Shown here: positions 25,037 through 63,636 of the stretch, in pieces
How positions within the stretch are numbered: the stretch's first letter is position 1
How the letters are laid out: the number at the start of each line of letters is the position of its first letter
Assembly (NCBI GenBank): GCA_949358305.1
Contig: OX442314.1
Span: 23,064,001-23,128,000 of the forward strand
Direction: 5' to 3'
Length of the DNA: 64,000 bases
From: Strigamia acuminata
Lineage: Eukaryota
Position numbers and translations under genes: made by a program
Notes under the pieces: model-generated
The model's input: only the letters and a program-made list of their open reading frames with translations
What the model was told of the DNA's origin: nothing
Database searches by the model: none

Positions 25037-26590
25037 ATGTCGACTCTGATGGAGCATAAAGGCGCGTTGTTAGGAGTATTTTTCATCCTACTGTACTTTA
25101 TGTGGATGGATGTAGCACTTTATTACCATATCCAGGGTCGAGAACCCCCGCGACCGTCGTCTGAAAAGCCGGTGTATCATTCTCGATCAGGATTGCAGGG
25201 ATTATTTTCACCTTTCAATGGACTTTCTATTAAAATGATGATGATCGACCCTGCTAATCATTACATACACACACCAGCAGCTACCATTTTCAATGAGGTG
25301 AGCAATGGAAATGGAATTTATCTGCCAGCAAATGATGAGGCCATTTTAATTTAACTTGGATTGTTAAATTTTTTTTTTCGTTTTTTTAATTATTAAAATA
25401 ACCTTGAACTGTCTTATTTTGATAGGTTGTGCAACCGAATTCGTTTGGAATTTCAGCCAACTCTTGATTTTTTTGATTTTTTTCTTTGTTAGGTTTAAAG
25501 CAGTGATGGCTGCTAGAATCAAAATTTGAATATGATAAGACAAAATTTTAATCTAATTTTATTTATTACTGAATTTTTGTCGTATTGTTTTTTTTCTAGG
25601 TCACTCATTTCAGCAGCGTGTTCTCCTTCATAACTCCAAACATGATCAGCGTGTCGCACGTGTTTGTGTCGATCATCGCGGTAAAATTTATCGCATCCGA
25701 CACACTTTTGATGCGCCAAGTGGGAGTGATGCTTTTCGAATTTCGCTCGTTTCTGGACTGTTTGGACGGCGTTTTGGCGCGAGTGCGGAACAAGCAAGAG
25801 TCGAACATCTCGGAGTTTGGATCCATGGGATACGTGGTGGACGGTGTGGCCGACATGATGGGCTCGGCGGCTCTGGTTATCGGTTGTTTTCTCTATCTAC
25901 GACGGAATCAACCGTCACGTCGTTCAATGGGCAAACTAAGTTTAGCCAGTGTGGAAAGTGCTATTGTTGGTTCGTCGGCCAGCAGTCAGAGGAGAATTTT
26001 GACCGTCCTGGGGTGCTTTTCTTTGCAATTGTTTATAAGTGCGTTCTTTTGGGATCGATATATATCTGGCTATCACCAGTTATTGGAGAATCCTCAAGCA
26101 TCGGAGCAGCAAATGGTAGAATTGATCTTTTTTCGAGTTAAACAGCCTGGATTGACTCGCAATATTTTGTTTCATTTCAGATTTTGCAGAATGAAGTGCT
26201 AAAATCGGCTCTTATGTGGATAATAATGTGGTTTTGGCGGATCGCTAATGCTCATGCCTTATTAGAAATGGTTTTGTTTTCCGTTTTTATTAACAAATTA
26301 TGGGTTGGTATATTTTTTTGTGACTTTTTTGACATTTTTGACGTTTTATTTATAAATTATTTTAATTTGTTTTCTAGGAATTCTTAGCATTTATCCAATT
26401 CATTGGTTTTATTTGTTTATTTGTTCTAATTTCACTAACGGAAGTTCATTTTCATGATGTAATGATTCGGAATTGTGGTTTGTGTCGCGTGATTGTGTTT
26501 TCTAATTTGTTTTTATTTGTTTTTCAGGTTTCAAATTACATAGGAAAGTTAGCATTGACTTCCAAATTACTCAGTGCGCAGCCGACGTGA
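25037..26590 (+). CDS. Cpes: Ceramide phosphoethanolamine synthase-like (CDP-alcohol phosphotransferase), copy 1, 5 coding exons
   Basis: LYFMWMDVALY, MIDPANHY, ITPNMIS and the CDP-AP motif FLDCLDGVLAR...GYVVDGVAD. Exons 25037-25297, 25600-26115, 26181-26302, ~26378-26458, 26528-26590. Confidence 0.9.
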
Positions 26591-33892: not shown

Positions 33893-35648
33893 ATGTCTAG
33901 CATTTTAATGGAACACAGGGGATCGTTATTAGGAGGTTTTCTCATACTTTTATACTTCATGTGGATGGACGTGGCGCTTTATTACAATATTCAAGGTCGT
34001 GAACCTTTACAGCCGTCATCAACCGCACCAGCACATCAACCTCACAGTGGATTGCAAGGACTTTTTGCACCTTTTAATGGTCTCACTATTAAAATGATGA
34101 TGATTGATCCAGCCAATCAATACATTCACATTCCAGCTGCAACTATATTTAATGAGGTTTTTATTTTTAATTATTTAAAATTATTGGTTGACCCAAAATT
34201 TGACTGAGGGCTTGGAATTCGTCACAAATGATGAACATTCCAGCAATTTATTTACACATGAGCACCCAAACACAATGCAAGGATGCATGGGTGCGCACAA
34301 ACAAGTGATACACTACACTAATTAACCACTAAAATTTCTCTAAAAATCTTTTTGGCCCTGTGAAGTTCCGTAGTTTTGTTTTTACAGCGATTTTGAATAT
34401 CATGTTGTGATAATTTGTACAGATAAGACTTTTAATTGACTAGTTATTAACACATTTGAAGTTGATAAAATAGATTGATTGAACCCATTTAGCAAACAAT
34501 TATTAAAGATATTGCTTCACTTTCACCATTTTTCCTATCTAAAATGCCATGAATACCAAAATTATTTATATTTAGCGACTAGGCCTAGTTGACAGTATTT
34601 AAAGATTCCTACAATAAAACTACTTTGTTATACATAAGATATTTCTGAAATACTTGCAGGTGACCAATTTCAGCGGTACATTTTACTTCATTTCTCCAAA
34701 CATGATCAGTGTATTTCACGTATTTGTGGCAATTTTGGCAGCTCGGTTGCTTGCATCTGATTCACTCATAATACGACAAACGGGAGTTTTACTATTTGAA
34801 TTTCGTGCATTTCTGGATAGTTTGGATGGTGTGGTGGCCCGTGTGAGGAGAAAGCAAGAGCTCATTATTTCTGATTTTGGATCAATTGGATACATAGTGG
34901 ATGGAATAACTGACGCTTTTGGCACAGCAGCTCTTATTATTGGATGTTTCTTGTACTTGCGTAAAAGCCAACTGTCACGTCGAGGAATGAGCAAATTACA
35001 CTTAGCCAACATTGAAAACGCAATCAATGGCCCTTCAAATAGCAGTCAAAAAAGAATGATCTTTACTGTTCTTGGCTTCTTTTCACTCCAATTGTTAATC
35101 AGCGCTGCATTTTGGGATCGATACATCTCAGGTTATCATCGATTATTGGAAAATACTGAAGCATCGAAAGAGCAATTGGTAAAATGTCTATTTGTTCTTG
35201 TTTTGTTTGTAATCCATTTATCTAATTGTTTCGCAGTATTGGCAAAATGATCAACTGAAATCGTCCGTTATGTGGATTATTATGTGGTTCTGGCGGATGG
35301 CAAATGCGCATGCATTAATGGAAATGATTTTATTCTCTGTATTTATTAATCGATTGTGGGTGAGTTTAAATCTGAATTCACTAGAATTAATTATTTTAGA
35401 AATTAATTTATTCTTTTTTAATTTTAATTAAAAGGAATTTTTAACTTTTATCCAATTTGTTGGTTTTATATGCTTAACATTCCTCATATCAATCACAGAA
35501 ATTCACTTCCGAGTTGTGAGTAATTCTTGGTGTTTAATTTTTTATTTGATTGATAAAATAACTGAGTTTAAAATTTTGTTTTTAGATTTCTAATCATGTT
35601 GATATATTATCAATAGCTTCAAGCATAGATACATCATCAACACTATGA
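33893..35648 (+). CDS. Cpes: Ceramide phosphoethanolamine synthase-like, copy 2, 5 coding exons
   Basis: Colinear with copy 1, same intron positions. Motif FLDSLDGVVAR...GYIVDGITD; ends IDTSSTL*. Confidence 0.9.
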
Positions 35649-42200: not shown

Positions 42201-45141
42201 TCAGTTTATTTTATTATTAGCCTAATTACTAATAAAATGAAAGTACGAGTGAAAATATTTTGCCACTGTATATTGCAGTAGGTATTCAGCTTCTTTGAGT
42301 TCCTCTGAAATTGAGGATCTTTCGCCCATGTCACTTCTACACCCTGGTGAGCACTCCTCCAAACCCAAATCGAAATTGGGACGCCTCAAATTTGAGCATG
42401 ATTACTTCAGAAGGAAGAGGAAGGATTCGTCCACGACTGATGACTTTGAGATTGAAGCGAGGAAAAATTCGATTGATTCCTCTTCTGAATCATTGGTAAC
42501 GTGTGCAATGTTTTTTTTTTGTTTTTTTTTTTAATTTTACTTTAATTTTATTAATCAATTTATTTATTTATTTTAAGGATTCGGCAACGGTTAAAGATGT
42601 TGTGACAAATATTGTGTCAGTTGTGTCGGAAAAATATCCGGACGAAATGCAAAGTCAGCCGCTTATTATTGTTTTGGGCGATTCAAAAATTAAGAAAATG
42701 AATCTTATTGGCAAAAGTAGGTTTTTGTTTACTTAAATCATTATGAAAATCTAATTAATGTGTTTTTTTTTTAGGTGATGATACGAATAAACAAATGATT
42801 TTAGCTGAATCGATGACTCAAGACAGCGAAGTTGAAACGTTAGCGGTGAAAGAATCGAACACGAGTTCTAACAGTTCTAATAGACAGGATAAAATGGAGG
42901 ATTCTAGTGGTAAATTTAATTTATGAGGATAAAAAAAAAACTTGTTTTTTTTATTTTTTTTAAATTGTTTTTTAGGTCGACAAGAAAAGAAAACGATTGA
43001 ATTAGCGACGGAAAGTCAAAATGAAATCAAAGATGAGCAAATACCGGATCAAACTGTTTTGCTTAAAATGTGTCTGGATGCTTTGCGACAATGTTTGCAG
43101 CGCTTTCCGCAACATTATAAATCTCTCTACAGACTCGCATATTTTCATAGCAGGTCGAAATTCAACAAGGTTAATTAATTAATTGATATTTTAATGTTCG
43201 ATTGAATCGCTTCAATACTTGATTTATTTTTTTTAATTTTTAGCAATTACAATGGAGTCGAGATTTTCTCTTAGGCCGAAGCATTCCTTGGCAGCAATTG
43301 AGTTACATGCCGAGTCAGGGGTTGTTTAATGAAAGGAAAAATTCAAATTTGTTTAATGTAAGATAACGAGAAAGAAAACCAGACGTGGTTCTATAATTGC
43401 GCTTTATTTGCAGGGAATTTGGCGAATTCCAAACGACGAAATCGATAGACCGGGCAGTTTTTGCTCCCACATGTATCGCTCTGTAAAACTTCTTGGAGAA
43501 GTTTTGCTGCAGTTGAAAGATTTTTTCGTTCTCGCAAATTTGCTCACGCAACTCTATCGTACTCCAGAAGCGGGAAAGTGCGTATAAATGATTACATAAC
43601 GTATGATTTGCATAGTTGATTCAAATTCTTTATTTCTAGGAAGTTTCTGCGCGACAATGACCGATTAATCGTCGCCAACCTGATTCAAGGTCTAACAATG
43701 GATGCACTTATGGAAGAAATGAATCGCTGGTGTGGTGTTCCGTCTAAATTTCGAGAAAACGAAGACAAAGCCGTTAAACATGTGCTTTTAGTGTCCAAGA
43801 TTTGGCATATTTTGATCAAAGTTTCTGAAAAATGCAGCGAGGTGAATAAGTTGTTCGAAGATGTTTTTCGCATTTACATAAAATGTGTGGAGGTAAATAA
43901 AAATTCGAATATTTCTGCCATTTAAATTCTATTACTACAATCAATTTTCATTGAAATAGATCCCTGAAACGTCCAATCTGCTAGATCAGGCTTTAAAATT
44001 TTGCCAACAACAACAAAGCATGTCCCGAGCCATGAAAATGTCAACGATGGTCCAGATGGATTTGCTGCGAAACTCTCAATCCCTTTTACTAACCGGTGGA
44101 TTAGAAATGGAAAAGAAAATTAAATCGATTCCAGAGTACACGAAACTGACGCCTCATTCGGAAACAACGAGAATCGATTACGTCCACAACAAATCACAAT
44201 TCGAAACGACTCGGATCGATTACATTCACAAATCGCAGATGGAAATGCCCAACAAAGAGAAACCGAATTTGCCGACGAGCAAAAGCGTCTCGACAACCGC
44301 AGAAAACGTGTCCAAAAAAGGCGTTTGGGTGTCCAACGCGATCCCCGTCGAAGGCGTCGTTATTGGTTCGATGACCATTACTCCGGTTGGCGCAAACTCG
44401 CCGTCACCCGAAGGATTAATGAGTCGTTTACCGTCCAGTACAAAATCGCCGCGCGGGCCGCTCAATTTATCCACTACGAATCCGGCAAGACCGGCCACGG
44501 CGACACCGAGCAGCAACATAACTAGAAATCCTCCTCCGTCGACATCGAGTGCCAAGTTTGCGCCTTCGTTCGATCCCAGTCGATTGACCGCCGACGTGCA
44601 ATCGAAAATTACGTCGCTGGACCCGGTCGAACATGCAAAGACGACAAAGGCGTTGTCGGGTTATCAGATGGAGTTTTTGAAGCAAATCAGCCAAACGCAG
44701 ACTGTGCCGACGTCGTTCAAGCCGCGGGGAAGGGGAACGGGGAAAATTGCTTTTCAACCTCAGACGTGGGGATCGCGAACTTCCGCCGTCGTTTCGTCGG
44801 CTAATAAGTCAACGTTGGATCTGTCAGTTAAAAACGAACCGGTGGAAATGACGTCTTCCAGTTTGACGAATTTTCCGACCGATTTGTCGGTTTCGGCGTC
44901 GAGTGAACCGGAATCGACGCCGCCTAAGCCTTCGTCGTTGAGATCTATTAGGATTTCGACTCAGGAACCTGCAAAGAGAATTGTAGGGCCTCTGAATTTG
45001 AAATCTACGTCCAACTTTGTTGGGTTGTGTACGAAAGTGTCTCCGCCAACTGTCACGGCGCCCGTTGTTACTACCCCGTTTGAAGTTATTGACATTTCTT
45101 CTAGTTCTAGCTCAGAACCAGAAGGAAGGCAAAATGAATGA
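36201..45141 (+). CDS. CABIN1: Calcineurin-binding protein Cabin1 (TPR subunit of the HIRA complex), many short introns
   Basis: ATG|gt at 36201 joins [101 protein letters not shown] and [14 protein letters not shown] all match recalled vertebrate CABIN1 blocks. Low-complexity last exon to 45141. Confidence 0.95.
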
Positions 45142-45959: not shown

Positions 45960-46128
45960 CACGTTCAGCTTATATTTGAACACTCATGAAGACTCTTTGT
46001 AGGAGGCGCCTAGCATACTTCTCTGCCCGGCACACCTCTTCTCCTGGCATACTTCGGTTGTTCTTAGCAACTTAACCTAACCTAACAATGGCATACATTG
46101 GGGCAGATGTACAGAACAACCCATACTT

Positions 46129-46213
46129 CTCTGCCCGGCACCCCTCTCTGTCCGGCACTCTTCTCTGCTCGGCACCCTTCTCTGCCCGGCGCCCCTCTCT
46201 GCCCGGCGCCGCT
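46129..46213 (+). repeat. 17-bp minisatellite (ctctgcccggcrcccct), left 5 units; target of the gypsy insertion
   Basis: Five in-register 17-mers ending exactly at the TSD. Confidence 0.92.
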
Positions 46214-46855: not shown

Positions 46856-47038
46856 GAGAATAAATCATCGGGGCCCCCCCTTTAAATAAAGGTGGAGCAG
46901 TATCTTTAATCATAAATAATCTTTTTATTAAATAATGATGAATGATGAACAAAATATTTTACATTCTTGAAATTGATACATAAATAATTTCAGGTTTTTT
47001 TAGAGAAGACAGTCTTCTCGTTATGAATATGTAATTAA

Positions 47039-50000
47039 TTATTTCTTCAAGTTATCGGCGTAACTTGGCTTATCTTCCGAACTTGGTTCGTCCAGGTTGG
47101 GAGATGTGGTCAATTTTGAAGAGTAGTCCGAGGGGTCTTCGCTCTCGTTCAAGTAGAAACGTAAGTGACCTGGTGCTTCCAGCGGATTCCCCGTTCGTTC
47201 GTGGGCCCAAATTGGCGGCAAAAAGGGCGACATTCCCTGATTGGTGTGATGGATTCTTTGGGCCTCGGCAATGCTGGTTGGCGCGCGATGGGCTCGGAGT
47301 AGTCGTTGATGCTGGATGAAGCGATCGCCTCCGGCTCCAGCTTCGATAGCGTTCTTCATCCAGACATAAAGAGAATAGCCACGGTCTGGGGTTTGGAGTA
47401 ATTTTGTTTCAGTATCCTTCGTCAAGGACAACCCCGGGAAGTACATCCGGAGTCTGGCGGCGATCTGAGGTTCGGCCGTCTTTGAAGCTTTCATGCTCGA
47501 TTTTGGGCGGAGCAATTTTCCTTTTGTTTCCTTCTTTTTGAGCGAGACTGGTTCGGCCAGTGGTTCGGAAGGTCTATTTTCCTTCGGCGGAGGCGGAGGA
47601 GGAGGCGTCGGATCCCTGGGAGCCGGAGTTTCCACGACGGGTGTGGTCACTGAAGACGACGGGCGTGGGTGTTGGATGATCGCTCGAACGTTCTGATAGG
47701 AGGTCTCTGGATCCGGGTCCTGGGCCACCATTTGGGCTCGAATTACTGCCGCAGAGGGCACTAGGCGGGTCCAGCTGTCTACGAGAGCCGGCGGGACTTG
47801 GAAACCCTCGTGGGCCACCACGATCCAGGCTGCCACAGCAACACGTGCGTTTCGGAAGGTGGCGGCGGCCAGCAAAATCGACATCAAGTCGGTAATGGCA
47901 ACCACGATCCTCGTATTCCAATTTGGATGATCCCGATTTTTGTTCTGCGTATATTCAATCGAGATCCGCTGAAGGTTCGTGATGACGTTTTGGATCACGT
48001 TTTGTTGGTAGGAGTCCATCTCGCACAAAAGCGCTCTAGCTTGCTCCACGGTCGTTACCTCCAGAAACTGTTGCAACGTTACCTCCGAAGGGTTGATTGG
48101 AGTCGAGGCTTGGATGACTGCTGGGGCTGGCAACATCGGATTGGGTCCCGTGGATGTCGTTGGCTGAGGCACAGATCTGACCAGACGTCTTGATTTTTCC
48201 GGTTCGGGCTTGTCCCAAACGATTGGAGTTCTCGTTGAAGTTGAGGCTTCGGGGATAGTTGGGAGAGGTTCGACTTTGGCCGGTCCAAAGCGAGCTTCTC
48301 GATGTCTGAGTTGTTCTTCAGAACTCAGTGTCGGTGCGCCGATTATCACTTTCTTGCGAAAGGCGCTTGGGAGGCTGACGCTGGATGTTACGCTTCTCGT
48401 CTGCGAGAGTTCCGGCTTGATGAAAGCACTTGGCGCCGTCTCTAGACTCGAGGCGGTCGAGGGAGTCGGGCGGTAGACTGGTTTCGGCTGCATTTGTTGG
48501 TATTGCATAACTACCGCGAGGAGGTCCGCCTGAGTATACATCTTCTTTTGCTCGGGGACCTCGTCGATAATTACCTCATCGTCGATCTTCATTGGTTCGG
48601 GACTGTCCCGAATTGATCGTGTATCTTCGCAGCGCCTCCTATCTCGCTGTCGAATTTCTTCTTCACGATACGCTTTCCATGAACGTGCGCGACTCTCCGA
48701 TCCTCTCCTTCTTCGTTCGTCTTGTAGACGGAGGTTCTCTCGTTCACGTCGGGCTCTTTCATCACGTTCGCGCAGGAACTCCTCTCGGTGTCTATTCCAG
48801 GATTCCTTGTTTTCTTCCCGCCGTCGGAAGTAATTTCTACGATAATCGTCCCAATTTTCTTGGTTCCTATCGCGTCGGCGTTGATCTTCTCGGCGGTCGG
48901 GGCGTTCGCGTACATTTTCTCTTCTTCGGCTGGTTGACGGGGCATCCCTGGATTGAAATCGCGATGTTTGTGGGATCTCCGTCTTTCCCAGGCGAGAGAG
49001 AGCGCTTGGTTTGGCCAGGCGTTTCTCTGTCGCGGGTTTCTTATTCTGCGCGCTGCTGGAAGTGCTTGGCTTGTCCAGGCATGGTTTCTTCGCTGAGCAG
49101 CCTGCTTCGTCGTGCTCGTTGGAGAGACGTTTCTCGGCCTTCTGGCGTTTGCGACCAAAGAAGCCCAAAAAATGCAATTGATGCATTGCTCGTTGCGAGG
49201 TGATGAAACCGTGTCTCGGTCTCCAATCTGGGCGGTCGGGCCGGTCTTCGCGGATCTGAAGGAGCCAAAACCTGATTTCCTCGGTCGAGTAACCGTCCGG
49301 CTGTAGATAATTGAAAACCTCGTCATGTGCGGTCCGCCTTACTTCTTCGTAATATGCCATATGAATCTGGTGTTTTTCTTCATCTGTTTCGGCGTCGCGC
49401 CATTGTTCGTAAACGTCCCATCCTCGCTGGTCGTCAGGAAAGGCGGCTCGGATTAGTGGATTCGGGATTGGCGCTGGCGGGTCCATATTTCTCGAGATAA
49501 CTGCCCGTAAAGCTGCTTGATATTGGCGCGGCATGTAGTGGATCAACGTTTGCTGGCTGGACCAGTAGCGGCTGATCGCACGGGACAATAAAAGGCGAAT
49601 TTTCCATGGTTCAAAGTCGACCGCTTCTTCGAGCGCTTGTCGGAACAGTATGGGGATTACTTCGCGCCATAAGCTGCCTGCGGAAACTCTTTTCGGGTCG
49701 ATTTGCCCCCACGTAGTGCGATATCCGTCCTAAATATTAGAATATTAATAAATATATTAGGATCGTTGATTAATTTGTCATATTTTTGTAGAGATTCTTT
49801 CGTCTAACACAAGATGGCGTCATGGTCGGCCATGTGCTTTTCGACCACGTGTCTTGAAGTTAATTTTTCTTTCGGTATTTGATTAATTTTGATAATTTGT
49901 CACTTAAAGTTAAATTATTTCTTCGTTTGTGGTCAGTCCACGAACTTATTTCGTATTTTTGATTATCGATAATTGAATTTTTTCTATTTTTTACTTACGT

Positions 50001-50148
50001 CGGGTTGGACATCGGGTTCATTGGGTTCGTCCCAATTTCCCTCTTCGTTGTTTACAATGATTTGTAACAAATCCACTTGATCTTCATCGTCATCCTCGGA
50101 AGCGTTGTTTACGGCCCGTTCAATTTCTTTCTTCCAATCATTTCTCAT
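47039..50148 (-). CDS. Retrotransposon ORF3, two exons (50148-49999, 49729-47039), ~946 aa, unknown function, not env-like
   Basis: The 849-aa track ORF is open for 47 more codons upstream, to a ctaat...tttAG acceptor. A 50-codon ATG exon (MRNDWKKEIERAVNNASEDDDEDQVDLLQII...DVQPD) ends at a GTAAGT donor. Both junctions are phase 0. Confidence 0.85.
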
Positions 50149-50326
50149 TTTTCGGAAACTAATTTGATTTCACGGCTGTCTCGAGGTGATCGTTGCTTAG
50201 TCGGAGATGACAGTGATAAGTGTGGGTCGGGTTAGAGGTTAACTATTAGTCTCATGTCATCTTTGATTGGTTTGGCCAATTAAGACGCATTGTGGGACGT
50301 AACAGGTGTCCCCCCTGTGGTTGTTT

Positions 50327-53300
50327 TTATCGATTGTTTGAGACAATGGCCGGAGTCGCTTTTTGTTTTCCGACGAGTTTCCCGTCTTTTATGAACGGGT
50401 TTGGCTTGTGTCGGCGCATACCGTATATTTTATCAGGTTTGGGGATTCCTGTAGTCTTCTTTTTGTTTGATTGCTTTCCTTTTTTAGGAGATTCTGCGAC
50501 TATTTCCTCCCTCCCCGAAATCTCATCCGGGGCGTCGGCCACTTCGAGTAACTCATCTTGAACTAAATTGGTTGGGCCAGTTTGTTCATCTAAAAACATG
50601 TCGCGAATAATTGGATTTTTCGCTGGTTTCGTCTGATATTCCGTCCAAGCCTCTTGAGGAAACTCAGGTAAGTATGGAGTTAATTCTCGGGCGTGGATCG
50701 ATCTAAAATTAACGTTATCTGCCAATCTTTTTAGCTTGAAAGCGTTTCCGCCGTGGGCTTCGAGTATGACGTACGGGCCGTCGCGTTTGTCTGCTAAGCC
50801 TGCGTGGATCCCCTTATCGGCGCTGGACTGAATATGTGTGTCTTTCCAGACGAGGTCATTGACTTTAAAATTGCAGAAGGGCCGATCCTTTCCAGCAATG
50901 CTAATACGATCTCTCATGTCGAATATGTGTGACATCATGTGCTGATAAGTGGCCGAAATTATTTGCTCCAGTCTGTCGACATAAATATGAGGCTTCTCAG
51001 GATCAATTTCCAGTATTTCCTCCGGTATTCGTGGGTCCCAGGGTACTCTGAGTTCCCGAGCGAAGTTTAGAAACGCGGGAGAAAATTTGCGGTTCCTTGA
51101 GATCGTTGTGCGGATGCTGAAGGCAATTTCACGAAGATATTCGTCCCAGCTGGAGTGAACATCGGTGAAAATTGCTAGTGCATATTTTATATCGCGATTT
51201 AACCTTTCGACGGGATTGGCCCGTGGATTATAGGTTGATGTATATGATGTCTCGATGTCGAATTTTTTACAGAAGTCTTTATACAAATTTGACGCGAATT
51301 GTGGTCCATTATCGGAGATTAATTTTCGAGGGAATCCAAAATGAAGCGCCACTTCGTACAAACATCGAATGATTTTTTGCTTAGTTGGTCTCTCCATTGG
51401 AAAGAGTTCGGGCCATCCAGTCGCGACATCCATGATTACTAATATATATTTGTTTTTATTGGATGACGTGGGTTTTGGGCCCATTAAATCCACGCTCCAG
51501 CAATCGAAGGGTGCGAAAGGGCCAAGTGAGATTCTCTCGTAGTTCTTGGGCGTCCTCGGCTTGCACGCTTGGCATCTGGGGCAGTGATGAATAAAACGAA
51601 CAATATCTCGGGTCATTTTTGGCCAGAAATAAAGTTGATTTGCTCGGTAGATCGTTCTGGCCACTCCAGAATGTCCGGCGAGCGGGTGTCCGTGGACCAT
51701 CCACAGAAACCTTGTCAGCAGACTCCTGGGTATAACGACTTTCATCGAAGTTCCTGTCTCCGTCAGATCATCGCGGAAATTCGGGTGGTGTTTTAGTAGA
51801 AGTCCATCCTCGATTAAGTACGTGGAGGCTTCTCTTTCGAATTCTTCACGTTGGATTTCGTCGAAATTCTCGTCGGGAAATATTTTATCTGTGATGAAGT
51901 CTCGATAAGTTTTACAGAAGTCGTCTGCCATCTGGGCGGCTATTAATTCGTCCCTGGTGGGCGGTTTGCTATTCGTCCCCTTGCTTACGTGGGCGACGAA
52001 TGCTCGAACGTACTTGTCGGAGATTCGAGGTTCTATTGTTAGCTCATAATTTGGGTGAGCGTCCTTGACCGACTGGTACGCTCGGAGCCAATAACTGTAA
52101 TAATTCTGGTCTCCTGACTCGAGTTTCTCCTTGGGTAATTCGTTTAGCTTTTTAAATTCCCATTTTCGGACGGGGTTCGGACAGTAGAAGAGGCGTGAGT
52201 CGTCCTCTCCGCAGTCGGTCTCGTCTTCGGGGTCTGAAGCTGGGGCTCGTGAGAGGGCGTCTGCCACGACGTTGAATTTTCCGGGTCGGTATTCAATGAT
52301 TAAGTCACAAGCCATTAATTCTAGCTGCCAGCGAGCCATTCTTCCGGACGGTTCCTTCAACGCCATTAACCACTTTAGTGCTTCGTGGTCAGTTTGTACG
52401 TTGAACTTGGTAAATTCCAGGTATGGTCTGAATTTTCGGATTGCCCAGACGACGGCTAGACATTCTAACTCTGTCGCATTATAATTCTTTTCGGCTGCTT
52501 GTAATTTCCGGCTGATGAACATCGTCGGGACCTCTAACACTACTCCGTCGATGTCATGCTTTTGAAGCAACGCAGCACCTAGGCCAATTCGACTGGCGTC
52601 GGTGTGAAGAGTGAATTCTCGATTAAGATCTGGTAGGGGAATTCGTTTTACATCGATCAGCATTTGTTTTATTTTGTTAAACGATGTTTCGCAGTGGTCA
52701 GTCCACTCGAAATCTTCATCGTTGCGTAACAGATCTGTGATGGGCGCCGCGACGTCTGCCAAATTTGGGAGCAATCGATTGAAGAAATTCACCATGCCCA
52801 TGAAACGTTGGACTCCTTTTACATCTTCCGGGGCGGGGAACTGGCTAATCGCCTGGGTCTTTTTCGGGTCGATGGATAGGCCACCTGTTCCGACTGTGTA
52901 ACCCAGGAATGCCAATTCTTTGCGGCAAAATTTACTTTTCCCTGGATGAATGTTTAGACCGGCTTTTGTGAGTCGCTCCATGACGTCATTCACGTGTATC
53001 AGGTGATCTTCAAAAGTTTGGGAGACTATGACTATATCATCGAGGTAAGCCCATGCGTATTTGTGTAAGGCATCGCCGAGAACTTTTTCTATTAGTTTTT
53101 GAAAGGTGGCGGGTGCGTTTACTAACCCGAAGGGCATTACATTAAACATCAGTCGACCCTGTGGTGCCCAAAAAGCTGTTTTCTCTTTATCCTCTTCCCG
53201 CAATTCAACCTGCCAGTAACCCTTGGACAAGTCCATGGTCGTGACCCAGTTAAATGGGGCGAGCTCCCGTAGAATCGCTTCTATTGACGGCATTTGGATG

Positions 53301-54439
53301 GGGTCGATGACGGTTATGGCGTTTAAAGGTCTATAATCGATGCAGAGGCGCGGTTCGGAGCCTGGTCGCATGACGAGGACAATCCTCATTCCATATTCTC
53401 CGATGGCGTGCGACACGATCCCTTTTTCGAGTAACTCGTTGCACATCGTTCTTACGATATGTCTCTTTTGGGGATTCATAGTTTTAAAAGGTACTCGCAC
53501 CGGTTTTCCCGTAACCAATTCGATCTCGTGCATTACGTAACTAGTCTTTCCTGGATCTTTATTTAAGTTCTTCGAGTGCTTCTTGAGCATTTCCTCGAGG
53601 AGTTTCGTTTGTTCTTCTCCAAGATTGGCGTCCATGGCCAGATTATGTATTAAATTCTCCTCTTGGAGGATAGTATTAAACGACTTAAAATTATAGTCTT
53701 GGATGAACTTCTTAATTTCGCCTCCTCCCCATTCCTCGTCGTCCTTAGCTTTGTCTAGGAGTTCCGGAGGTATTATGGGTAGTCGTGGGTCCTCGTGGTT
53801 GTCGATGTAATTCCACGAACGTGTGACTGGGTTGGGCTGGATGTTCATCCGTTCCATCAAATCCATTCCTATCAGCAGGATTGTGTCTCGGGTTGGTAAC
53901 ACGATGAAGAAATGCTTAATCGTGCCTCCTTCCCATACAAAATCGGTTGATAACGTCCCCACTGCTCTAACTTCTCCCGCTGCTGTAAGAACTCGAATAT
54001 TCTCGTTCATTCCCCGTAATTTTTTCTGTATTTTTTCTTCGAGTGATTCGAATAAGTCGGTGGAGATAAACGACTGATCCGCTCCCGAGTCGAGTAGTCC
54101 CATTAACACCTTTTTGCCGAAAGAGACTGGTATTTTAGCCAGTACGCTCTTCGCTTCTGTTGATAGGTTGCAACGAAGTATTCGCTTTTTAAGAGGATTG
54201 GCCCCTTGGTCAAGCGGCAAAGTCATGAAAGCGTTGGCTATACCGTCTTCGTCTCTAATTTCGAATTTCCGTTTTTTGGTTGGAGTTGTGACTTCCTCGT
54301 TGGCAGCTTCCTCGAAGAATTCCAACAATTTTTTCATTTCTTTAATTTGTTTTTCCACCAGTGTAAGGTCCATCGTTTTCGAAGTTATCGCGAGCGGATG
54401 TGGAATCACTTTTGTTCCGCCCGCGAGTTCCAGTTTTTT
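50327..54439 (-). CDS. pol: Pol polyprotein (protease, RT, RNase H, integrase), expressed as a -1 frameshift fusion with Gag
   Basis: LLDSGAD protease; RLCIDYR, MPFGL and YLDD RT; HTDAS, ELE, TDH and NVVADALSR RNase H; H-H-C-C zinc finger, SVDLMG, SDNG, VERLN and GPY integrase, in gypsy order. Confidence 0.97.
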   Translation of the reverse strand, partial: KKLELAGGTKVIPHPLAITSKTMDLTLVEKQIKEMKKLLEFFEEAANEEVTTPTKKRKFEIRDEDGIANAFMTLPLDQGANPLKKRILRCNLSTEAKSVLAKIPVSFGKKVLMGLLDSGADQSFISTDLFESLEEKIQKKLRGMNENIRVLTAAGEVRAVGTLSTDFVWEGGTIKHFFIVLPTRDTILLIGMDLMERMNIQPNPVTRSWNYIDNHEDPRLPIIPPELLDKAKDDEEWGGGEIKKFIQDYNFKSFNTILQEENLIHNLAMDANLGEEQTKLLEEMLKKHSKNLNKDPGKTSYVMHEIELVTGKPVRVPFKTMNPQKRHIVRTMCNELLEKGIVSHAIGEYGMRIVLVMRPGSEPRLCIDYRPLNAITVIDPIQMPSIEAILRELAPFNWVTTMDLSKGYWQVELREEDKEKTAFWAPQGRLMFNVMPFGLVNAPATFQKLIEKVLGDALHKYAWAYLDDIVIVSQTFEDHLIHVNDVMERLTKAGLNIHPGKSKFCRKELAFLGYTVGTGGLSIDPKKTQAISQFPAPEDVKGVQRFMGMVNFFNRLLPNLADVAAPITDLLRNDEDFEWTDHCETSFNKIKQMLIDVKRIPLPDLNREFTLHTDASRIGLGAALLQKHDIDGVVLEVPTMFISRKLQAAEKNYNATELECLAVVWAIRKFRPYLEFTKFNVQTDHEALKWLMALKEPSGRMARWQLELMACDLIIEYRPGKFNVVADALSRAPASDPEDETDCGEDDSRLFYCPNPVRKWEFKKLNELPKEKLESGDQNYYSYWLRAYQSVKDAHPNYELTIEPRISDKYVRAFVAHVSKGTNSKPPTRDELIAAQMADDFCKTYRDFITDKIFPDENFDEIQREEFEREASTYLIEDGLLLKHHPNFRDDLTETGTSMKVVIPRSLLTRFLWMVHGHPLAGHSGVARTIYRANQLYFWPKMTRDIVRFIHHCPRCQACKPRTPKNYERISLGPFAPFDCWSVDLMGPKPTSSNKNKYILVIMDVATGWPELFPMERPTKQKIIRCLYEVALHFGFPRKLISDNGPQFASNLYKDFCKKFDIETSYTSTYNPRANPVERLNRDIKYALAIFTDVHSSWDEYLREIAFSIRTTISRNRKFSPAFLNFARELRVPWDPRIPEEILEIDPEKPHIYVDRLEQIISATYQHMMSHIFDMRDRISIAGKDRPFCNFKVNDLVWKDTHIQSSADKGIHAGLADKRDGPYVILEAHGGNAFKLKRLADNVNFRSIHARELTPYLPEFPQEAWTEYQTKPAKNPIIRDMFLDEQTGPTNLVQDELLEVADAPDEISGREEIVAESPKKGKQSNKKKTTGIPKPDKIYGMRRHKPNPFIKDGKLVGKQKATPAIVSNNR
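54388..54439 (-). promoter_or_regulatory. -1 programmed ribosomal frameshift signal
   Basis: A-AAA-AAC in the gag frame (54439-54433), a 6-nt spacer, then an 11-bp stem UCGCGGGCGGA / UCCGCUCGCGA. The -1 frame is the pol frame. Confidence 0.88.
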
Positions 54440-57252
54440 GTCATACTGTCGAATTTGGCGGTGAGTTCCTTCAAGATTTTTTCTTGTTCCTTCGCGAGCA
54501 ATTTCACTAGCTCCTCACGCTCTGCGGCCTTGTCGTCGGCTTTTTTCTTTGCCAGTTTTGGGCAGGCCTGACGCCAGTGGCCGTCTTCGTTACAGAAATT
54601 ACAAGGGCTTTTCTTCTTTCCCTCCCGCTCAAAAGGTTTTTTGGGGTAGTCCTTCTTCTCGGAAGTCGCCTCTGTTTTCGGGTTGTGGTGTTCCGATTTT
54701 CTGGACTTCATCTGAGGTCGGTAGCTGGGCGCCAGTTCCTTCCCCATGTTTGCGTGTACCACATCGTTGATACCTTCGTCAGCCTCATCGCTTTCCGAGA
54801 ATTGCTCAGAGTCTTCGCTTACTTCGTCTTCCGACTTTTCCTCGGCGGCGTTAGTTTGCGTGCGATAGGCCTTATTCGGAGGTGGTAAAGGGTTAGAAGC
54901 TTGTTGGTTTTTCTTTGAGGGGAGTGGCTCTATACTTCCGTTTAGATAATTTCGCGATTGGAGCAGCTTAGTGGAGTCTATGCTGCGCTCCTGTATTCGT
55001 TGCTGTCGGGCCACTCCTAGAGCTCGCTCTTCTTTTGTCAGATTTTCGTTATACCGAGCATTTACTTCGGTGTGTTTCTTCTCGACGAAAGCTAGGATGG
55101 CTTTGAAATTATCCCCTTTAGGAGCGTTCATTTCTCGTAGGACTTTGGTTGCGGTTTCGTTTAGTCCTTGTTCGAAGAGAGCTTTCTGAGCGTGTTGGTC
55201 AAATGGTTTGTCCATTTCACGGAACAGGCTGTCGGCTCGTTGTACGTATTCCCTCAGAGTTTCCCCGGGAGCTTGCTTCATAGAGCTTACTCTTTTCTGG
55301 ATTTCTTGGCTCGTCTCGCCATATTGATTGTGGAACTTTATGACGAAATCTTCCCAGTTTCGGGGTTGGACATCAGCGTACCAGTTTCGGGCCCGGTTGA
55401 TCAGCATTTCTGGTATTCCGCGTGCAACCATTTCGTCGGGTTCCGCTCCTAAGCGATTAATCGTCAGGGCGACTTCGTCCAAAAACAAGTTGCCGGCGTT
55501 CCAGGATCCGTCGAACTTAATTAGTCTCAGGGTCGTCCACTTGATGTTGTTATCCTTGCGAGAATACAGCCATCGGTCTGCGGAGTAACGTTTCAACAAT
55601 CCTTCGCTTCGATCGTCCTCCTCGGTCTCTTGGCCACGGCTTTGTTGAAGTTTTTGGTCCATGGCCTGAAGGAGTTCGTCTTTCATCGTCCGTAGTTGGT
55701 TGCTTAGCGAGTCAGTCTCACTAAGCAGCGGTGATGATCGTGGATTGTCGGAAGGGAGGCTTGGGTAATGCGTACCGTTGCCCGTCAGTCCGAACTGATT
55801 GTGTTGGAACGACGTTTTCCCTGATGATCCCGCGGTGTTCGGGTTATTCGTGAGGTCTTGCGCTATGGTTGAGTTATCTGGGTTCGCTTTCTCTGGAGCG
55901 GAGGTTTGGCTCAACTTTGTTCCGGGCGGTATCAGATCGTCCAGTCGGGTCCCCGTGAGGCCTTCGTTCGTTTTTTTGATAAAAACGTAGGAATCTCTCC
56001 CAGCATACGCTTCGGCGGCGTGTTTCTTTTCGAGGTGATTTTTAACTGCGTTAATCTCCTCGAGCGTCGGCATGGCCAGTTTATTTTGACCTACTTCGTT
56101 GCGTATTTGATTCTTCTGATTTATACATCTGATTAGCTCTGCGTTAGGGTCGCCTGGGTTGTTATTACTGGTTTGGCCAGTTTTCATTGCGAATGAGTTT
56201 TTTACTGCCCATGATTGTGCGCCCTGATTATTCCTCCTATCCTGTATAAACGCCTCGTACAGTTCTCCTTTGACTTCGTCCGATTCGTTCAAGATGCTAT
56301 CTAGTCCGTTGACTCGGATACTGCCGTGAGATGCTTGAGAGTCGATACTTTCGCTGTCTGACGTTGCTTCGCCGCCTGTCTCGGACTGTTGTCGATCTGC
56401 TCCGACCCGACGTCGTTTCTCTCCGCGTCTGGCCGTGTTATCTGCCGATCGTTTTTCAGTCCTCTGATTTACTAGGTCGATTACTCGGCTTAGCTCTGCG
56501 TAGGGATCCTTGTCCTGGTCGATCTCGATGCCGTGTGCGCAAGCTACCCGAGTTACTTCTATTGCTTTGGCTACCAGCTCCTTAGCTGTGTGAGACCGTT
56601 CTGGGGAGCTCTGTACGGAGTTTGGCTCCGAATGCTGGCTTAACCCGTTGCTTGGCGGCCGGATCTGGCAGTCCTTTGCCATTTCTCGTTCGATTATTTT
56701 CTGCTTCGCGAGCAATTCTCGAGCCAGCTCGCGCTCCAGTGCCATTTGTTTAGCTTGGTGTTCTTGTGCCAAGCTCTGTTCCATGGCAGCTAATTTCTCG
56801 CGATGCTCTCTGGCTAAATCTTCCATCAATTCGTTTTTCTTCTTCTCTAACGCGACTGTTCTTGCTTGGTCTGCGCGGGCAGCCTCGTTGATAATTGCGG
56901 CACTTGTGTTTGCCGCTTTATTTAGAAGAGTCATTAGATCCATTTCACTGGGATCCTTTTCGACTGGTCTTGGGCTTTTCAATCCGAATCGAGGGTTTTC
57001 GAACGATTTATTTAGTCCGTTTTCTTCGTGAGAGCTTCCTGATCCTTCGAATTCGCCTCCCGTAAACGGAAGTTGTCTTGCAAGGGGAAGGCTTTCACTT
57101 GATGATTCCGTTGAAACTTTAGTCGAGTTAGTCTCGACTTCTGGTTCCACGTGGTTCGCTTCTTCCGCTTTTTGGCGTTCGATTTCTTCGGCTTCTTTTC
57201 TATCCTTTTCGTCGTTACGCCTTTTTCTATCTTCTGCGGTAGTTTTTGTCAT
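54406..57252 (-). CDS. gag: Gag (948 aa): long N-terminal extension, capsid domain and one CCHC zinc knuckle
   Basis: RARNWY..WEDFVIKFHNQY..MKQAPGETLREYVQR capsid-like block; CNFCNEDGHWRQAC. Confidence 0.93.
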   Translation of the reverse strand: MTKTTAEDRKRRNDEKDRKEAEEIERQKAEEANHVEPEVETNSTKVSTESSSESLPLARQLPFTGGEFEGSGSSHEENGLNKSFENPRFGLKSPRPVEKDPSEMDLMTLLNKAANTSAAIINEAARADQARTVALEKKKNELMEDLAREHREKLAAMEQSLAQEHQAKQMALERELARELLAKQKIIEREMAKDCQIRPPSNGLSQHSEPNSVQSSPERSHTAKELVAKAIEVTRVACAHGIEIDQDKDPYAELSRVIDLVNQRTEKRSADNTARRGEKRRRVGADRQQSETGGEATSDSESIDSQASHGSIRVNGLDSILNESDEVKGELYEAFIQDRRNNQGAQSWAVKNSFAMKTGQTSNNNPGDPNAELIRCINQKNQIRNEVGQNKLAMPTLEEINAVKNHLEKKHAAEAYAGRDSYVFIKKTNEGLTGTRLDDLIPPGTKLSQTSAPEKANPDNSTIAQDLTNNPNTAGSSGKTSFQHNQFGLTGNGTHYPSLPSDNPRSSPLLSETDSLSNQLRTMKDELLQAMDQKLQQSRGQETEEDDRSEGLLKRYSADRWLYSRKDNNIKWTTLRLIKFDGSWNAGNLFLDEVALTINRLGAEPDEMVARGIPEMLINRARNWYADVQPRNWEDFVIKFHNQYGETSQEIQKRVSSMKQAPGETLREYVQRADSLFREMDKPFDQHAQKALFEQGLNETATKVLREMNAPKGDNFKAILAFVEKKHTEVNARYNENLTKEERALGVARQQRIQERSIDSTKLLQSRNYLNGSIEPLPSKKNQQASNPLPPPNKAYRTQTNAAEEKSEDEVSEDSEQFSESDEADEGINDVVHANMGKELAPSYRPQMKSRKSEHHNPKTEATSEKKDYPKKPFEREGKKKSPCNFCNEDGHWRQACPKLAKKKADDKAAEREELVKLLAKEQEKILKELTAKFDSMTKNWNSRAEQK

Positions 57253-57344: not shown

Positions 57345-57975
57345 TGTCGTGATTCGACTTTGTGGTTAAAGATAATAAATAATACACTCGGGAATACAAT
57401 ATATTTCAAATACTGCTTTATTAAAACACGCTTACTAATACAAATATAAGTCAAGATGTTTCCTGTGTTGGTCCTCGGATTCGGCTGCGAATACGAGTTG
57501 CCGCTAAACAATGGCGGATCCAATTGTTTAGTCCTACGCGTGGTCTATGTTTGTTGTCTAGGGTATTTCCACGTGTTATTATGAACACGCGAGAATTCGC
57601 TTTCTCGTGCGAATTAAACGAATATCGTTCGAATATTTATTCTAGCGTAGATTGGCTACGCTAAATAAATGTGGCTGTTGTACAGTTGAAATGGTCAGCG
57701 GGCACCGGTCCTCGATCAATCCGTGAAACGGCCTGAAAGGTGAGGTAAATGGTGCTCTTGCTGAAATGTGGTAACTGTAGTGTCGTTTCCGGTCAAGCAT
57801 TGGCTATATATATTAACCGGAAATGACGTCATATGCAAATCCTTCTGATTATGCAGGTTCGCAGAAACACGCGACTAGTCAGTCTAGTCGGTATTTCTAG
57901 CGCGCTCTAGTGGCGAGTATTAGTAACACAATAATCACCGCTAATTACTTCTTCAGGTGATGCTGAATCACCACA
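57345..57975 (-). repeat. 5' LTR (631 bp) with promoter motifs
   Basis: Octamer ATGCAAAT, CRE TGACGTCA, ETS-like CCGGAAA and TATATATA cluster at ~57805-57840. AATAAA on the minus strand at ~57417-57422. Confidence 0.97.
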
Positions 57976-57979
57976 CGCT

Positions 57980-58115
57980 CTCCGTCTGGCGTTCCTCTTC
58001 GTCTGGCGTTCCTCTCTGCCTGGCACCCCTCTCTGCCCAGCGCCATTCTCTGCTTGGTGTCCCTCTCCGCCTGGCATTCCTCTCTGCCCAGCGCCCCTCT
58101 CTGCCCGGCGCCCCT
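57980..58115 (+). repeat. 17-bp minisatellite, right 8 units
   Basis: Continues the 46129-46213 array in register once the element and one TSD are removed. Confidence 0.92.
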
Positions 58116-58942
58116 GGGCTGCAGCCCAGTTAACTTAATGGTAAAGATGGCCCTGGCCATCACCCGCCTAAGTAAAGAGGGAAAAGACGCAGCCCCGCCA
58201 TTTTGCGCGCAACAAGCCGTTGTGCTGTGCCATTTCCATTCCTATTATTTCGCGACCGTTGTCGTATTCATTATTGTTCAATTCATAGTCATTATTATTA
58301 GTTTTAGCCTAATTTATTAATTCAATTGTATTTCATTAATAAATCATTTGTTCATTTGAATTAAACCACTTGTGTATTTTATTTAAACATCTAGACAACC
58401 TTTTGGCCACTTATTCCTGATTTAAGTCTTACAATAGCATTCAACATGTGATTAAAACCCGAATCGTAGCAGGGCATAATATAATTCAACATCGTCACAA
58501 CTTCTTTAAAAACTATTTGTTAGATTATCTAATTTCCCCAATCGGAAATGATTCTCCTTTATACATTAGCCTAGCCTGTTACACACTAACAAGCGTATAA
58601 TCCATTTTATTTGCTAAATTAAAGTTTAGCTCCCAAAAAATAATTTTCATTCCTGAATTAACGCCATTGCTGTTCACACTCTAATATCGTCACAAACTCG
58701 TTTCGTCATATGCGCAAACAATGTTCATGCTTGCGTCTCATTGAATGAGGCGATATTATAATCGATATTGCTAGCCATATAATTCGATAATACATTTAAA
58801 CTTCACAAGCGATACAAAAAGATATAAAGATATTAGTGTTTACTTTCCACAAAAACACAACAGAATATAGTCATGAAACGTGGAATAAACTAGAATTTAT
58901 TATTATTATTCAGCTTGCTTCCAGAATTCCATTTACTTGTTA

Positions 58943-61600: not shown

Positions 61601-63636
61601 CAGTGTACTCATAAGTCAGTGTAGCCCGGGCATTGCACCAGGGTCCAGACAGCTGTGTGGTCCGGATAGGGTTGGTCGTTTTCATTAAAATTTTTAATGA
61701 AATATGTTGTGTTCTGACTTGCGTATTAGATGTAATAATTGTTATGGCAACAATAAATGTATGCATTGTTGCCGCGGTTGGAATAAAAAGTTCAGTTGTT
61801 GTGAAAATGTGTAAATGAGTAGTTCATTTTCTGGGCCTCTCCTAGATGGTCAGGCCTAGGACATACTTAGTATTTTAGAACGATGAGATATACTAAATTG
61901 GCGCAGTCAATGGAACTTAACTTATGTGCGTGTGGACTGTGAACTCTTTAAAATAAATTTAGAAAATAAAAGAAATAAACGGGATTAAGCCTGAATTCGA
62001 GTTTGGAACGTTGGCCGTTCCAATGTGTTGTGCTGTGCCGAGTGGACAAGCTCTAGTTGCCGACTTTGGAGTTTTAAGCCGTTAGTTATCCGTGAGTAGC
62101 GGTAATTTGGCGGCGTTTGAATTTTTGCTGATGTTGCGACGTGAGTGTGACGTATTTGCGATTATTCTTTGAGGCGCCGTGTGACTCGACTGGAGTTCTA
62201 GTTTGCTGCGACTACCCATCGTGTGTGTGTGGTCAAGTAGTTCACACATAGCTGACTCTGGCTGGGTCGGTTGTGGGACGTTTTCTTGCGAGTAGCAAGG
62301 AGCACAGTTGTTGTGTAGTCGACATTCGGGTGCTGTTTTGGTGCAAGGAGCATCGTCTGTAGTGTGCCCTGGTATGGTCTGCTGAGATAGCAAGACGAGC
62401 TGTCTTTGGTCGTGGTTCTACTGTTGTGTCAAGAGACACTATGGTGCGACTTTCTTACTGTCGAGAAAACAGTAGTGACCACGTTGTTGCGTGGAAGACG
62501 GGTCGTCGAGGATTTCGACTAATTTCCGAGTTGCCAAGGAAGTCGACAAGTGTGTGGATTCGTCAAGCGAGGCCGACGCCGACTTTGGTTTGTCGAACGA
62601 CGTTGACGAGTGGTTTTGACTTGGTCAGCCAGCTGACTAGGCATGAGAGTAAAATTGATCAAGTGTCAGCAGTGGATGAGGCATTGGAGAAGCAGGATTT
62701 GCAAAGAGTGAGCACGGATTCGAGTGTGCTGGTTGAAGCAGGTTCAGACACTGTAGTGTCGCTGGATCCAGTGGCAGAGATTGCATCACAAGATCCAAGT
62801 GTTGCTCAAGGTCAAGCGGCAGTGGTGGTACAAGATCCAGTTGCAGATATCACCCTGGTTCAATGCAAGATCCTGGAACAGAGCTAGGAACACTCATTTT
62901 CCCAAAGTCTGGAGGGTCTTGGGACCATTATGTTGCGATAATAATTAAAGTTCAAATGAAAAATCTTATTAGTCTATTAAGCAAACGTTGAATTGTGGGG
63001 TTATATTCTCTTCACAATATATTCTCTTCATAATATATGTAATAAAGAGGCTAAAATCTATAAGTTGGAATTGATCAGAACTGCTAAATGTGAATTTGAA
63101 TCTACACTCTGAAATTTGGTTTCATCTCATTACTTGAAAATTGTTTATTTGTTAAAGAGAAGTGTAATTCCAAGTTGGGGAGTGATGTTGTGTTCTGACT
63201 TGCGTATTAGATGTAATAATTGTTATGGCAACAATAAATGTATGCATTGTTGCCTCGGTTGGGTTAGCAACTGAGGTGGAATAAAAAGTTCAGTTGTTGT
63301 GAAAATGTGTAAATGAGTAGTTCATTTTCTGGGCCTCTCCTAGATGGTCAGGCCTAGGACATACTTAGTATTTTAGAACAATGAGATATACTAAAAAATA
63401 GTTACACCGTATTTGGACTGCAAATTAGTTCGTGAATTCGATTAAATCGATAGTACGAGAAATCAATTCCAACTTGGCCGAGCAAAGTGCATCAAAAGTG
63501 GCCGGCGTGCAGCCCATTTCCATACGCTCTCCCTCCCTCAGACATTTTGTCCGACCAGCTGTATGGACCAGACATTCCTTAGTCTGGACAAATTTCTGGG
63601 ACCAGTCCTATGTCTGGGTTACACTAGAGTACACTG
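61601..63636. mobile_element. Tc1/mariner-type MITE interrupted by a nested LTR element
   Basis: Imperfect TIRs cagtgtactc..agtgtagcccgggcat / atgtctgggttacactagagtacactg|ta. The interior matches 45299-45560. Confidence 0.75.
61705..63395 (+). mobile_element. Non-autonomous LTR retroelement (TRIM/LARD-like), 1.69 kb
   Basis: Direct repeats 61705-61897 and 63186-63395; 5-bp TSD AAATA (61700-61704, 63396-63400); PBS-like TGGCGCAGTC at 61899; PPT-like GGGGAGTGA at 63177-63185; no gag or pol motifs. Confidence 0.9.

Follow-up and report, generated by a model that had tools for sequence, protein, structure and literature searches.

The window (the 64,000-nucleotide stretch of Strigamia acuminata contig OX442314.1 that was analysed) contains a full-length Ty3/gypsy element on its minus strand, at positions 57975-46214. 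The two LTRs (the 5' LTR at 57975-57345 and the 3' LTR at 46844-46214) are 631 bp each, begin and end with TG..CA and differ by one mismatch, and the element is flanked by a 4-bp target duplication, AGCG (46213-46210 and 57979-57976). Because of these near-identical LTRs and the duplication the insertion is considered recent, in agreement with the preliminary description, which had placed the gene discussed below inside a recently mobile gypsy element. The 5' LTR includes a TATA-like run near 57812 and AATAAA signals at 57641 and 57422. A polypurine tract (46855-46845, minus strand) adjoins the 3' LTR, and the leader contains a candidate primer-binding site (57342-57326, minus strand) which we take to resemble the 3' end of tRNA-Pro; a search for the tRNA-Pro 3'-end 7-mer found none. 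The LTR termini, target duplication, candidate primer-binding site and polypurine tract are those of a Ty3/gypsy element. Rfam gave no matches across the element.

The insertion site is a GC-rich 17-bp minisatellite (46014-46213 and 57976-58132), within which the AGCG duplication lies and which also occurs elsewhere in the two contig runs described below. Each LTR has a donor-like GTAAGC (57435 and 46304), located 13 nt upstream of an AATAAA; such a site could bear on the suppression of polyadenylation in the 5' LTR, an idea that comes from foamy viruses. The regions 43960-45141 and 61643-63535, on either side of the element, have repeats in common that are 96-99% identical, together with two frames that lack Pfam matches (one of 393 aa, rich in Ser/Thr/Pro, and one of 174 aa), and they probably represent another repeat family. 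The host genes in the window (20600-21901, 25557-26202 and 34618-35250) comprise Menorin/FAM151 and two CDP-alcohol phosphatidyltransferase pieces. The Menorin/FAM151 neighbour matches a Strigamia maritima protein with 80% identity across 52% of its frame, and the next matches fall below 50%.

The gag frame (57252-54406, minus strand) encodes 948 aa, with a Retrotrans_gag domain at residues 614-699 and a zinc knuckle at residues 884-899; the N-terminal ~570 aa that precede the capsid domain (57252-55543) gave no significant Pfam match. The pol frame (54514-50327, minus strand) overlaps gag and encodes PR, RT, RNase H and IN in the order characteristic of Ty3/gypsy elements (Metaviridae), i.e., gag and then PR-RT-RNase H-IN. 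Both frames are open, and their overlap contains AAAAAAC (54439-54433), presumably a typical -1 slippery site. Among solved structures the best relative of pol is the Ty3 Gag-Pol (E 3e-102). In an RT tree without named reference clades (Osvaldo, Mag, errantivirus), the sister of the element is P0004 (46% identity over RT-RNase H), within a clade (support 0.998) that takes in 24 of the 193 rows and in which the names of the protein rows are uninformative. One contig of the second run (X2, depth 1905) joins across 8050 nt (46872-54923). This join would be a derivative with most of gag and the 3' end, lacking pol and ORF3, and is possibly a multi-copy non-autonomous form.

A third gene, ORF3, follows pol, and its parts lie at exactly the coordinates given for them in the preliminary description. 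Exon 1 (50148-49999, minus strand; 150 nt, 50 codons) starts with the ATG at 50148 and ends at a GTAAGT donor (49998). The predicted intron (49998-49730, minus strand) is a phase-0, GT-AG block of 269 nt, AT-rich, with CTAAT motifs at 49760 and 49740 and a TTTAG acceptor ending at 49730. Exon 2 (49729-47039, minus strand) is 2691 nt in length, corresponding to 896 codons and a stop. The phase-0 join of the two exons yields 946 codons and one stop with no internal stop, as had been claimed.

The GC content of the 269-nt block is 28%, versus 43% in exon 1 and 54% in exon 2, and a two-change-point fit, which was blind to the gene model, set the GC transitions at 49997 and 49731, each no more than 1 nt from a splice site. 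Read from stop to stop, the frame of exon 2 starts directly behind the TAG of the acceptor, and its first ATG is codon 66. The GTAAGT of the exon 1 donor is the single occurrence of this motif on the sense strand of the element, where 2.5 would be expected. When the 597 nt from the pol stop to the acceptor were shuffled, a comparable exon (an ATG-led frame of at least 40 codons with an in-phase end at a donor) appeared in 6 of 5000 shuffles for GTRAGT and in 28 of 5000 for GTRAG. Exon 1 has a codon score of +9.9 in the proposed frame, compared to -14.7 and -27.8 in the others. On these grounds, and from the contig differences described below, the 269-nt block is likely an intron, whose removal is needed for the 946-aa protein.

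Family copies were represented by contigs from two runs of one study (X1 and X2), which were taken as DNA because they look like DNA, covering the LTRs, the intron and the flanks. The contigs of the two runs cover the element in 30 of 30 bins, and ORF3 thus travels with the family, as had been supposed. The preliminary description had also proposed that selection on ORF3 be measured. In exon 2, the differences listed for the contigs are 27 synonymous and 6 non-synonymous over the two tables together, where ~23-30% synonymous would be expected; the rows were ranked by support, a ranking blind to codon position, and they stem from related copies rather than independent events. Seventeen of the 21 differences among the best 40 of 61 rows are synonymous (against 0.23-0.30 expected, p 2e-8 to 2e-6), as are 10 of 12 among the best 40 of 621 rows (p 2e-5 to 2e-4), and the listed contig differences correspond to a rough omega of 0.06-0.10. 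In the other two frames of the same strand, just 3 of these 33 differences would count as synonymous; for pol the figure is 12 of the 21 listed differences. Within codons 22-106 of exon 2, which lie in the N-terminal helical region, 17 of the 21 listed differences are synonymous. Exon 2 is therefore marked by purifying selection. The part of exon 2 ahead of its first ATG has 7 listed differences, 5 of them synonymous (p 0.03), so that this part is translated and needs an upstream start. One X2 contig has a 1-nt insertion at 48621, and a compensating deletion is not among the best 12 of 28 indels. The summed contig depth over ORF3 is about three quarters of that over pol, although depth cannot rank the genes.

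The codon usage of ORF3 correlates with that of gag (0.49) and pol (0.51) more closely than with that of 400 host codons (0.26), which argues for long residence in the element. As judged from the sequence, ORF3 is a real, long-resident and selected gene of the element family. These data bear on the reading of ORF3 as a recently captured host gene that includes its intron and rides along as a neutral passenger. An ordinary GT-AG intron would be expected in a piece of genomic DNA that had been captured, but the synonymous excess (27 of 33), the codon usage nearer to gag and pol than to the host, and the lack of any relative among 1.84 billion proteins, though a Strigamia protein was found for the neighbouring gene, all oppose it. 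This reading is already largely refuted, and we regard it as hardly credible.

No difference is listed in the GTAAGT or in the last 58 nt of the block, low-depth diverged copies being below the listing threshold. Among the listed indels, those of the 269-nt block measure 1-2 nt and the single one of exon 1 measures 3 nt, and those in the spacer upstream are frameshifting. In a diverged copy, 104 nt stand in place of 110 nt from the middle of exon 1, with adjacent gaps not all located. Joints that match the intron number 0 of 6 in one contig table and 0 among the best 15 of 63 in the other, so that no intron-less DNA copy was seen among the joints of contigs, which drop rare forms. Stretches of 534 and 557 nt (within 49544-50123), including the intron and parts of both exons, are missing from two low-depth contigs; their ends are not at splice sites, and these are deleted copies. 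The preliminary description had considered a sense intron paradoxical, as it should be lost on reverse transcription unless the genomic RNA retains it. The copies seen do keep the intron, but the paradox is smaller than was thought, as any element that packages unspliced RNA keeps its intron.

The signals around ORF3 fit a doubly spliced message. The spacer between pol and exon 1 (50326-50149, minus strand) is non-coding and tolerates the frameshifting indels of other copies. It has three short upstream ATG frames (50290, 50260 and 50255), all of them upstream of a branch-like CTCTAAC (50237); beyond this motif there are candidate acceptors at 50196 and 50176, and the next ATG is only that of ORF3 at 50148. 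The leader from 57780 contains no ATG, and a donor-like GTAAGA (57259-57254, minus strand) immediately precedes the gag ATG. The latter is a candidate donor for a subgenomic RNA, and this site (57259) differs in some contigs. An internal promoter would be an alternative route to an ORF3 message, as would in-frame splicing from the gag sites 55290 or 54822. In Tor3b and Tor4b the third gene is driven by internal promoters, according to the available text of PMC4402516.

The gag donors raise the question of whether exon 2 is genuine and belongs to a differently built transcript, either through splicing of a gag donor to 49730, giving a Gag-ORF3 fusion, or through a start within exon 2, with exon 1 being a separate peptide or a chance frame. 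Of the four GTRAG sites inside gag, two (55290 and 54822) have the phase 0 needed for an in-frame join, although one third of donors would be in phase by chance. CERV, the accessory protein of Cer1, also shares exons with gag in the available text of PMC10309623. The only listed substitution in exon 1 is non-synonymous. Exon 1 nevertheless scores as coding, keeps its frame across indels and has a GC border at its donor. Moreover, the stop closing the unspliced, stand-alone 54-aa frame is not kept, as it differs in 12 X1 contigs, and codons 22-48 of exon 2 are constrained, contrary to an internal start. A wrong transcript model is, on balance, decidedly improbable.

The ORF3 protein proved to be an orphan. 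A phmmer search of 1.84 billion representative proteins, a word-indexed protein search (restricted to lengths of 492-1568), a comparison by language-model features (Atlas), 19 metagenome contig candidates and a tblastn search against 83 gypsy loci yielded no relative. Pfam gave no match to the whole protein or to four pieces of it, and no match was found among PDB sequences. Foldseek with the ORF3 models returned nothing from the PDB, a weak blank in view of the low confidence of the models; a single BFVD row (E 9e-4, TM 0.07) is meaningless as a relative. Nor did the sequence, family and fold searches reveal homology or structural similarity to Rev, to CERV or to any RNA-binding domain, the comparison with CERV having been made by database searches and by Cys pattern. 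The clear match to an env or host gene that the preliminary description had named as refuting its proposal did not emerge from the sequence, family, feature or fold searches.

The position of ORF3 is that usually occupied by env, and the hallmarks of env were therefore examined. Exon 1 encodes an acidic head (17 acidic and 4 basic residues, with W, L and I) and, as the preliminary description had noted, is not a signal peptide: its hydropathy maximum is -0.66, as judged by hydropathy only. The 896 residues of exon 2 include 4 scattered cysteines and 1 N-glycosylation motif, with no Cys-rich ectodomain and no F/gB homology in Pfam, PDB or fold searches with a low-confidence model. The C-terminus is hydrophilic and has no membrane anchor. 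The claim that env hallmarks are absent thus stands for the signal peptide, ectodomain and anchor, and has to be tempered for two features that an env might share. One is the sole hydrophobic peak of the protein, which is internal (exon-2 residues 605-638); its core at residues 608-626 reaches a moderate Kyte-Doolittle value of 1.84, contains an Asp and lies within a predicted helical bundle. The other is a set of three RxK/RR motifs, all of which fall in the arginine-rich helix described below. Together with the env slot, these features speak for a highly diverged env or env remnant, to be set against the missing signal peptide, the few cysteines, the single glycosylation motif, the hydrophilic C-terminus, the lack of predicted beta structure and the lack of an env match; decay to a remnant is excluded by the strong selection. 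The env reading is already largely refuted and very improbable, and by its sequence the ORF3 protein is not an env.

Single-sequence folds of ORF3 were poor (mean pLDDT 45.6 and 45.1) and show a mostly disordered, charged protein in which proline-rich linkers separate helical parts. An N-terminal helical region (49729-49106, minus strand; exon-2 residues 1-208) has a KRQK motif at residue 194 in a low-confidence model. It is followed by an arginine-rich mixed-charge stretch (48934-48617, minus strand; residues 266-371), predicted to form one long helix, which is the sole confident part of the structure model. Its 106 residues comprise 38 R, 2 K and 28 D/E, with a net charge of +0.11 per residue. 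A second helical region (48097-47672, minus strand; residues 545-686) includes the hydrophobic stretch as well as leucine-rich patterns that resemble export signals. Both the NLS-like and the NES-like matches were obtained by regex, and such matches are common by chance. Long E/R helices can also act as plain spacers.

Arginine-enriched mixed-charge domains target nuclear speckles and affect mRNA export, as described in the available part of 10.1101/771592. The ORF3 stretch is similar to the domains of U1-70K, CPSF6 and FIP1L1 presented there in extending over more than 60 residues, with R greatly exceeding K, an admixture of D/E and a net charge of about +0.1, and it differs from them in a charged fraction of 0.64-0.67, under the screen value of 0.7, and in its prediction as a single helix. 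The best 61-aa window narrowly misses the required fraction (0.67 versus 0.7 over more than 60 aa), whereas its ratio of positive to negative residues (23:18) is inside the range of 1:0.7 to 1:1.3, and the stretch as a whole is arginine-enriched (38 R to 2 K).

We tentatively favour, with considerable reserve, a role for ORF3 in the nucleus, where it would regulate the unspliced RNA of the element in a manner comparable to Rev or CERV. This reading was chosen because working-looking splice sites appear to be kept in an RNA that has to be exported whole, and because the arginine-rich stretch is typical of nuclear RNA-processing factors; the basic NLS-like motifs, identified by regex, also count for a nuclear role, and CERV (PMC10309623) and the nuclear sORF1 of MDG1 elements (PMC11952523) set a precedent. 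The scheme starts from the selected gene described above, whose 946-aa product would likely be made by removal of the 269-nt intron. Transposed copies have kept the intron, which suggests that the RNA reverse-transcribed was unspliced. The ORF3 message would bypass gag-pol, likely by a splice from 57259 to 50196 or 50176, or else by means of an internal promoter. In the weakest steps of the scheme, the arginine-rich mixed-charge helix would serve both to bind RNA and to bring the protein to where RNA is processed in the nucleus, and the helical regions would mediate oligomerisation or the recruitment of export factors. Early spliced RNA would thus give rise to ORF3, and ORF3 would bind the unspliced transcripts of its own element and allow them to leave the nucleus, in the manner of Rev in HIV and of CERV in Cer1, in a switch to unspliced RNA for Gag, Pol and packaging. 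Against such a role, a Cys loop like that of CERV is missing from ORF3, and in the ATG-led model none of its exons is shared with gag. We know of no Rev-like protein in gypsy elements with a spliced env. Other gypsy elements are described, in the available text of PMC12992720, as producing spliced env messages alongside unspliced RNA. A more far-reaching version, in which the centipede gypsy lineage independently evolved the expression plan of complex retroviruses (a doubly spliced message, one of whose introns lies in the post-pol gene, and an orphan 946-aa regulator with a helix acting on speckles and on the machinery of splicing and export to flip the RNA from spliced to genomic), would make ORF3 the first arthropod analogue of Rev and CERV while related to neither; this version appears doubtful.

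The main rival is a spliced nuclear transactivator or anti-silencer, of which the helical region would act on the LTR or chromatin while the acidic head activates. Parallels are known in foamy-virus Tas and HTLV Tax, and the composition of exon 1 resembles that of acidic activation domains. The spacer, in addition, contains CCAAT-like boxes, and some Tor third genes have internal promoters (PMC4402516, available text). Transposon regions are methylated in Strigamia, where a Copia family has acquired an MBD by capture, according to the available part of PMC6673714; CpG depletion is, however, absent in the element (o/e 1.26). As Pfam and motif searches revealed no DNA-binding domain or chromatin motif, and as the middle of exon 1 is replaced in the diverged copy, we consider this role unlikely.

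ORF3 may also be seen as a cytoplasmic scaffold of the RNP or particle, with a part in condensates, transport or envelope-free passage from cell to cell. A mostly disordered, charged and proline-rich protein with a long helix and one moderately hydrophobic stretch would suit this purpose, and a small accessory protein gives envelope-free transmission in MDG1 elements (PMC11952523, available text). That protein, sORF2, has ~70 aa as opposed to 946, while ORF3 has no signal peptide, its hydrophobic stretch bears an Asp in a predicted helical bundle, and its basic residues are biased towards arginine. Such a scaffold is accordingly improbable.

The nuclear exit of intron-containing LTR-retrotransposon RNA is understood for very few elements. 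If the favoured reading, a nuclear RNA regulator, is true, the Rev solution would have arisen again in arthropods from a different protein, and the short internal intron would make the switch easy to follow. Irrespective of what ORF3 does, a selected 946-aa orphan in the env slot indicates that env-centred surveys miss large accessory genes of animal gypsy elements.

A search by title and start of abstract, with subscription journals, Repbase and GyDB outside its scope, found no published description of this element or of a centipede gypsy third gene; PMC13524379, including a search of its supplement, and PMC7998251 added nothing on ORF3 in the text available. The preliminary description had called ORF3 an undescribed accessory gene, which holds for the protein and the position of its intron; the concept is known from CERV (PMC10309623) and from the ORF3s of rotifers (PMC5408684), in the available texts. 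CERV of Cer1, a Ty3/gypsy element of C. elegans, is a spliced, non-env, Rev-like accessory protein (PMC10309623, available text, as for the comparisons that follow). Like CERV, ORF3 is a large non-env gypsy protein without homologs outside its lineage, with candidate NLS and NES, structured regions joined by flexible linkers and a spliced RNA, which in the case of ORF3 is predicted. CERV consists of 517 aa encoded in 5 exons, the initial ones being shared with gag, and is built of H, M and G domains with a Cys loop, whereas ORF3 starts at an ATG of its own downstream of pol and is distinguished by a predicted intron within the gene, an arginine-rich helix and the lack of a Cys loop. The export role is proven for CERV and a guess for ORF3; if the guess holds, ORF3 would work like CERV and Rev while being, by the tests run, a member of neither family.

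In the env genes of errantiviruses (PMC12992720) and of the Oikopleura Tor elements (PMC4402516), as far as the available texts describe them, the intron removes gag-pol, in contrast to the predicted intron of ORF3, which lies wholly within the third gene; ORF3 also differs from these proteins in having no signal peptide, Cys-rich ectodomain or C-terminal anchor. The LTR elements of bdelloid rotifers similarly carry non-env cargo in the env slot (PMC5408684, main text, in which the word "intron" has 0 occurrences), but the rotifer ORF3s are of GDSL, DEDDy, coiled-coil and TM types that include recognisable captured enzymes, and no match was found for the centipede ORF3. The sORF1 and sORF2 of the Drosophila MDG1 group are, like ORF3, accessory genes under purifying selection, and sORF1 is nuclear; they are distinct in their size (~70-110 aa), their location upstream of gag and their lack of splicing (PMC11952523, available text). 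Spliced non-env accessory genes of gypsy elements, as exemplified by CERV, and non-env third genes (PMC5408684 and PMC11952523) are thus already known. What appears to be new is the combination of an orphan 946-aa protein under strong selection and a predicted intron wholly inside a post-pol gene, in a myriapod.
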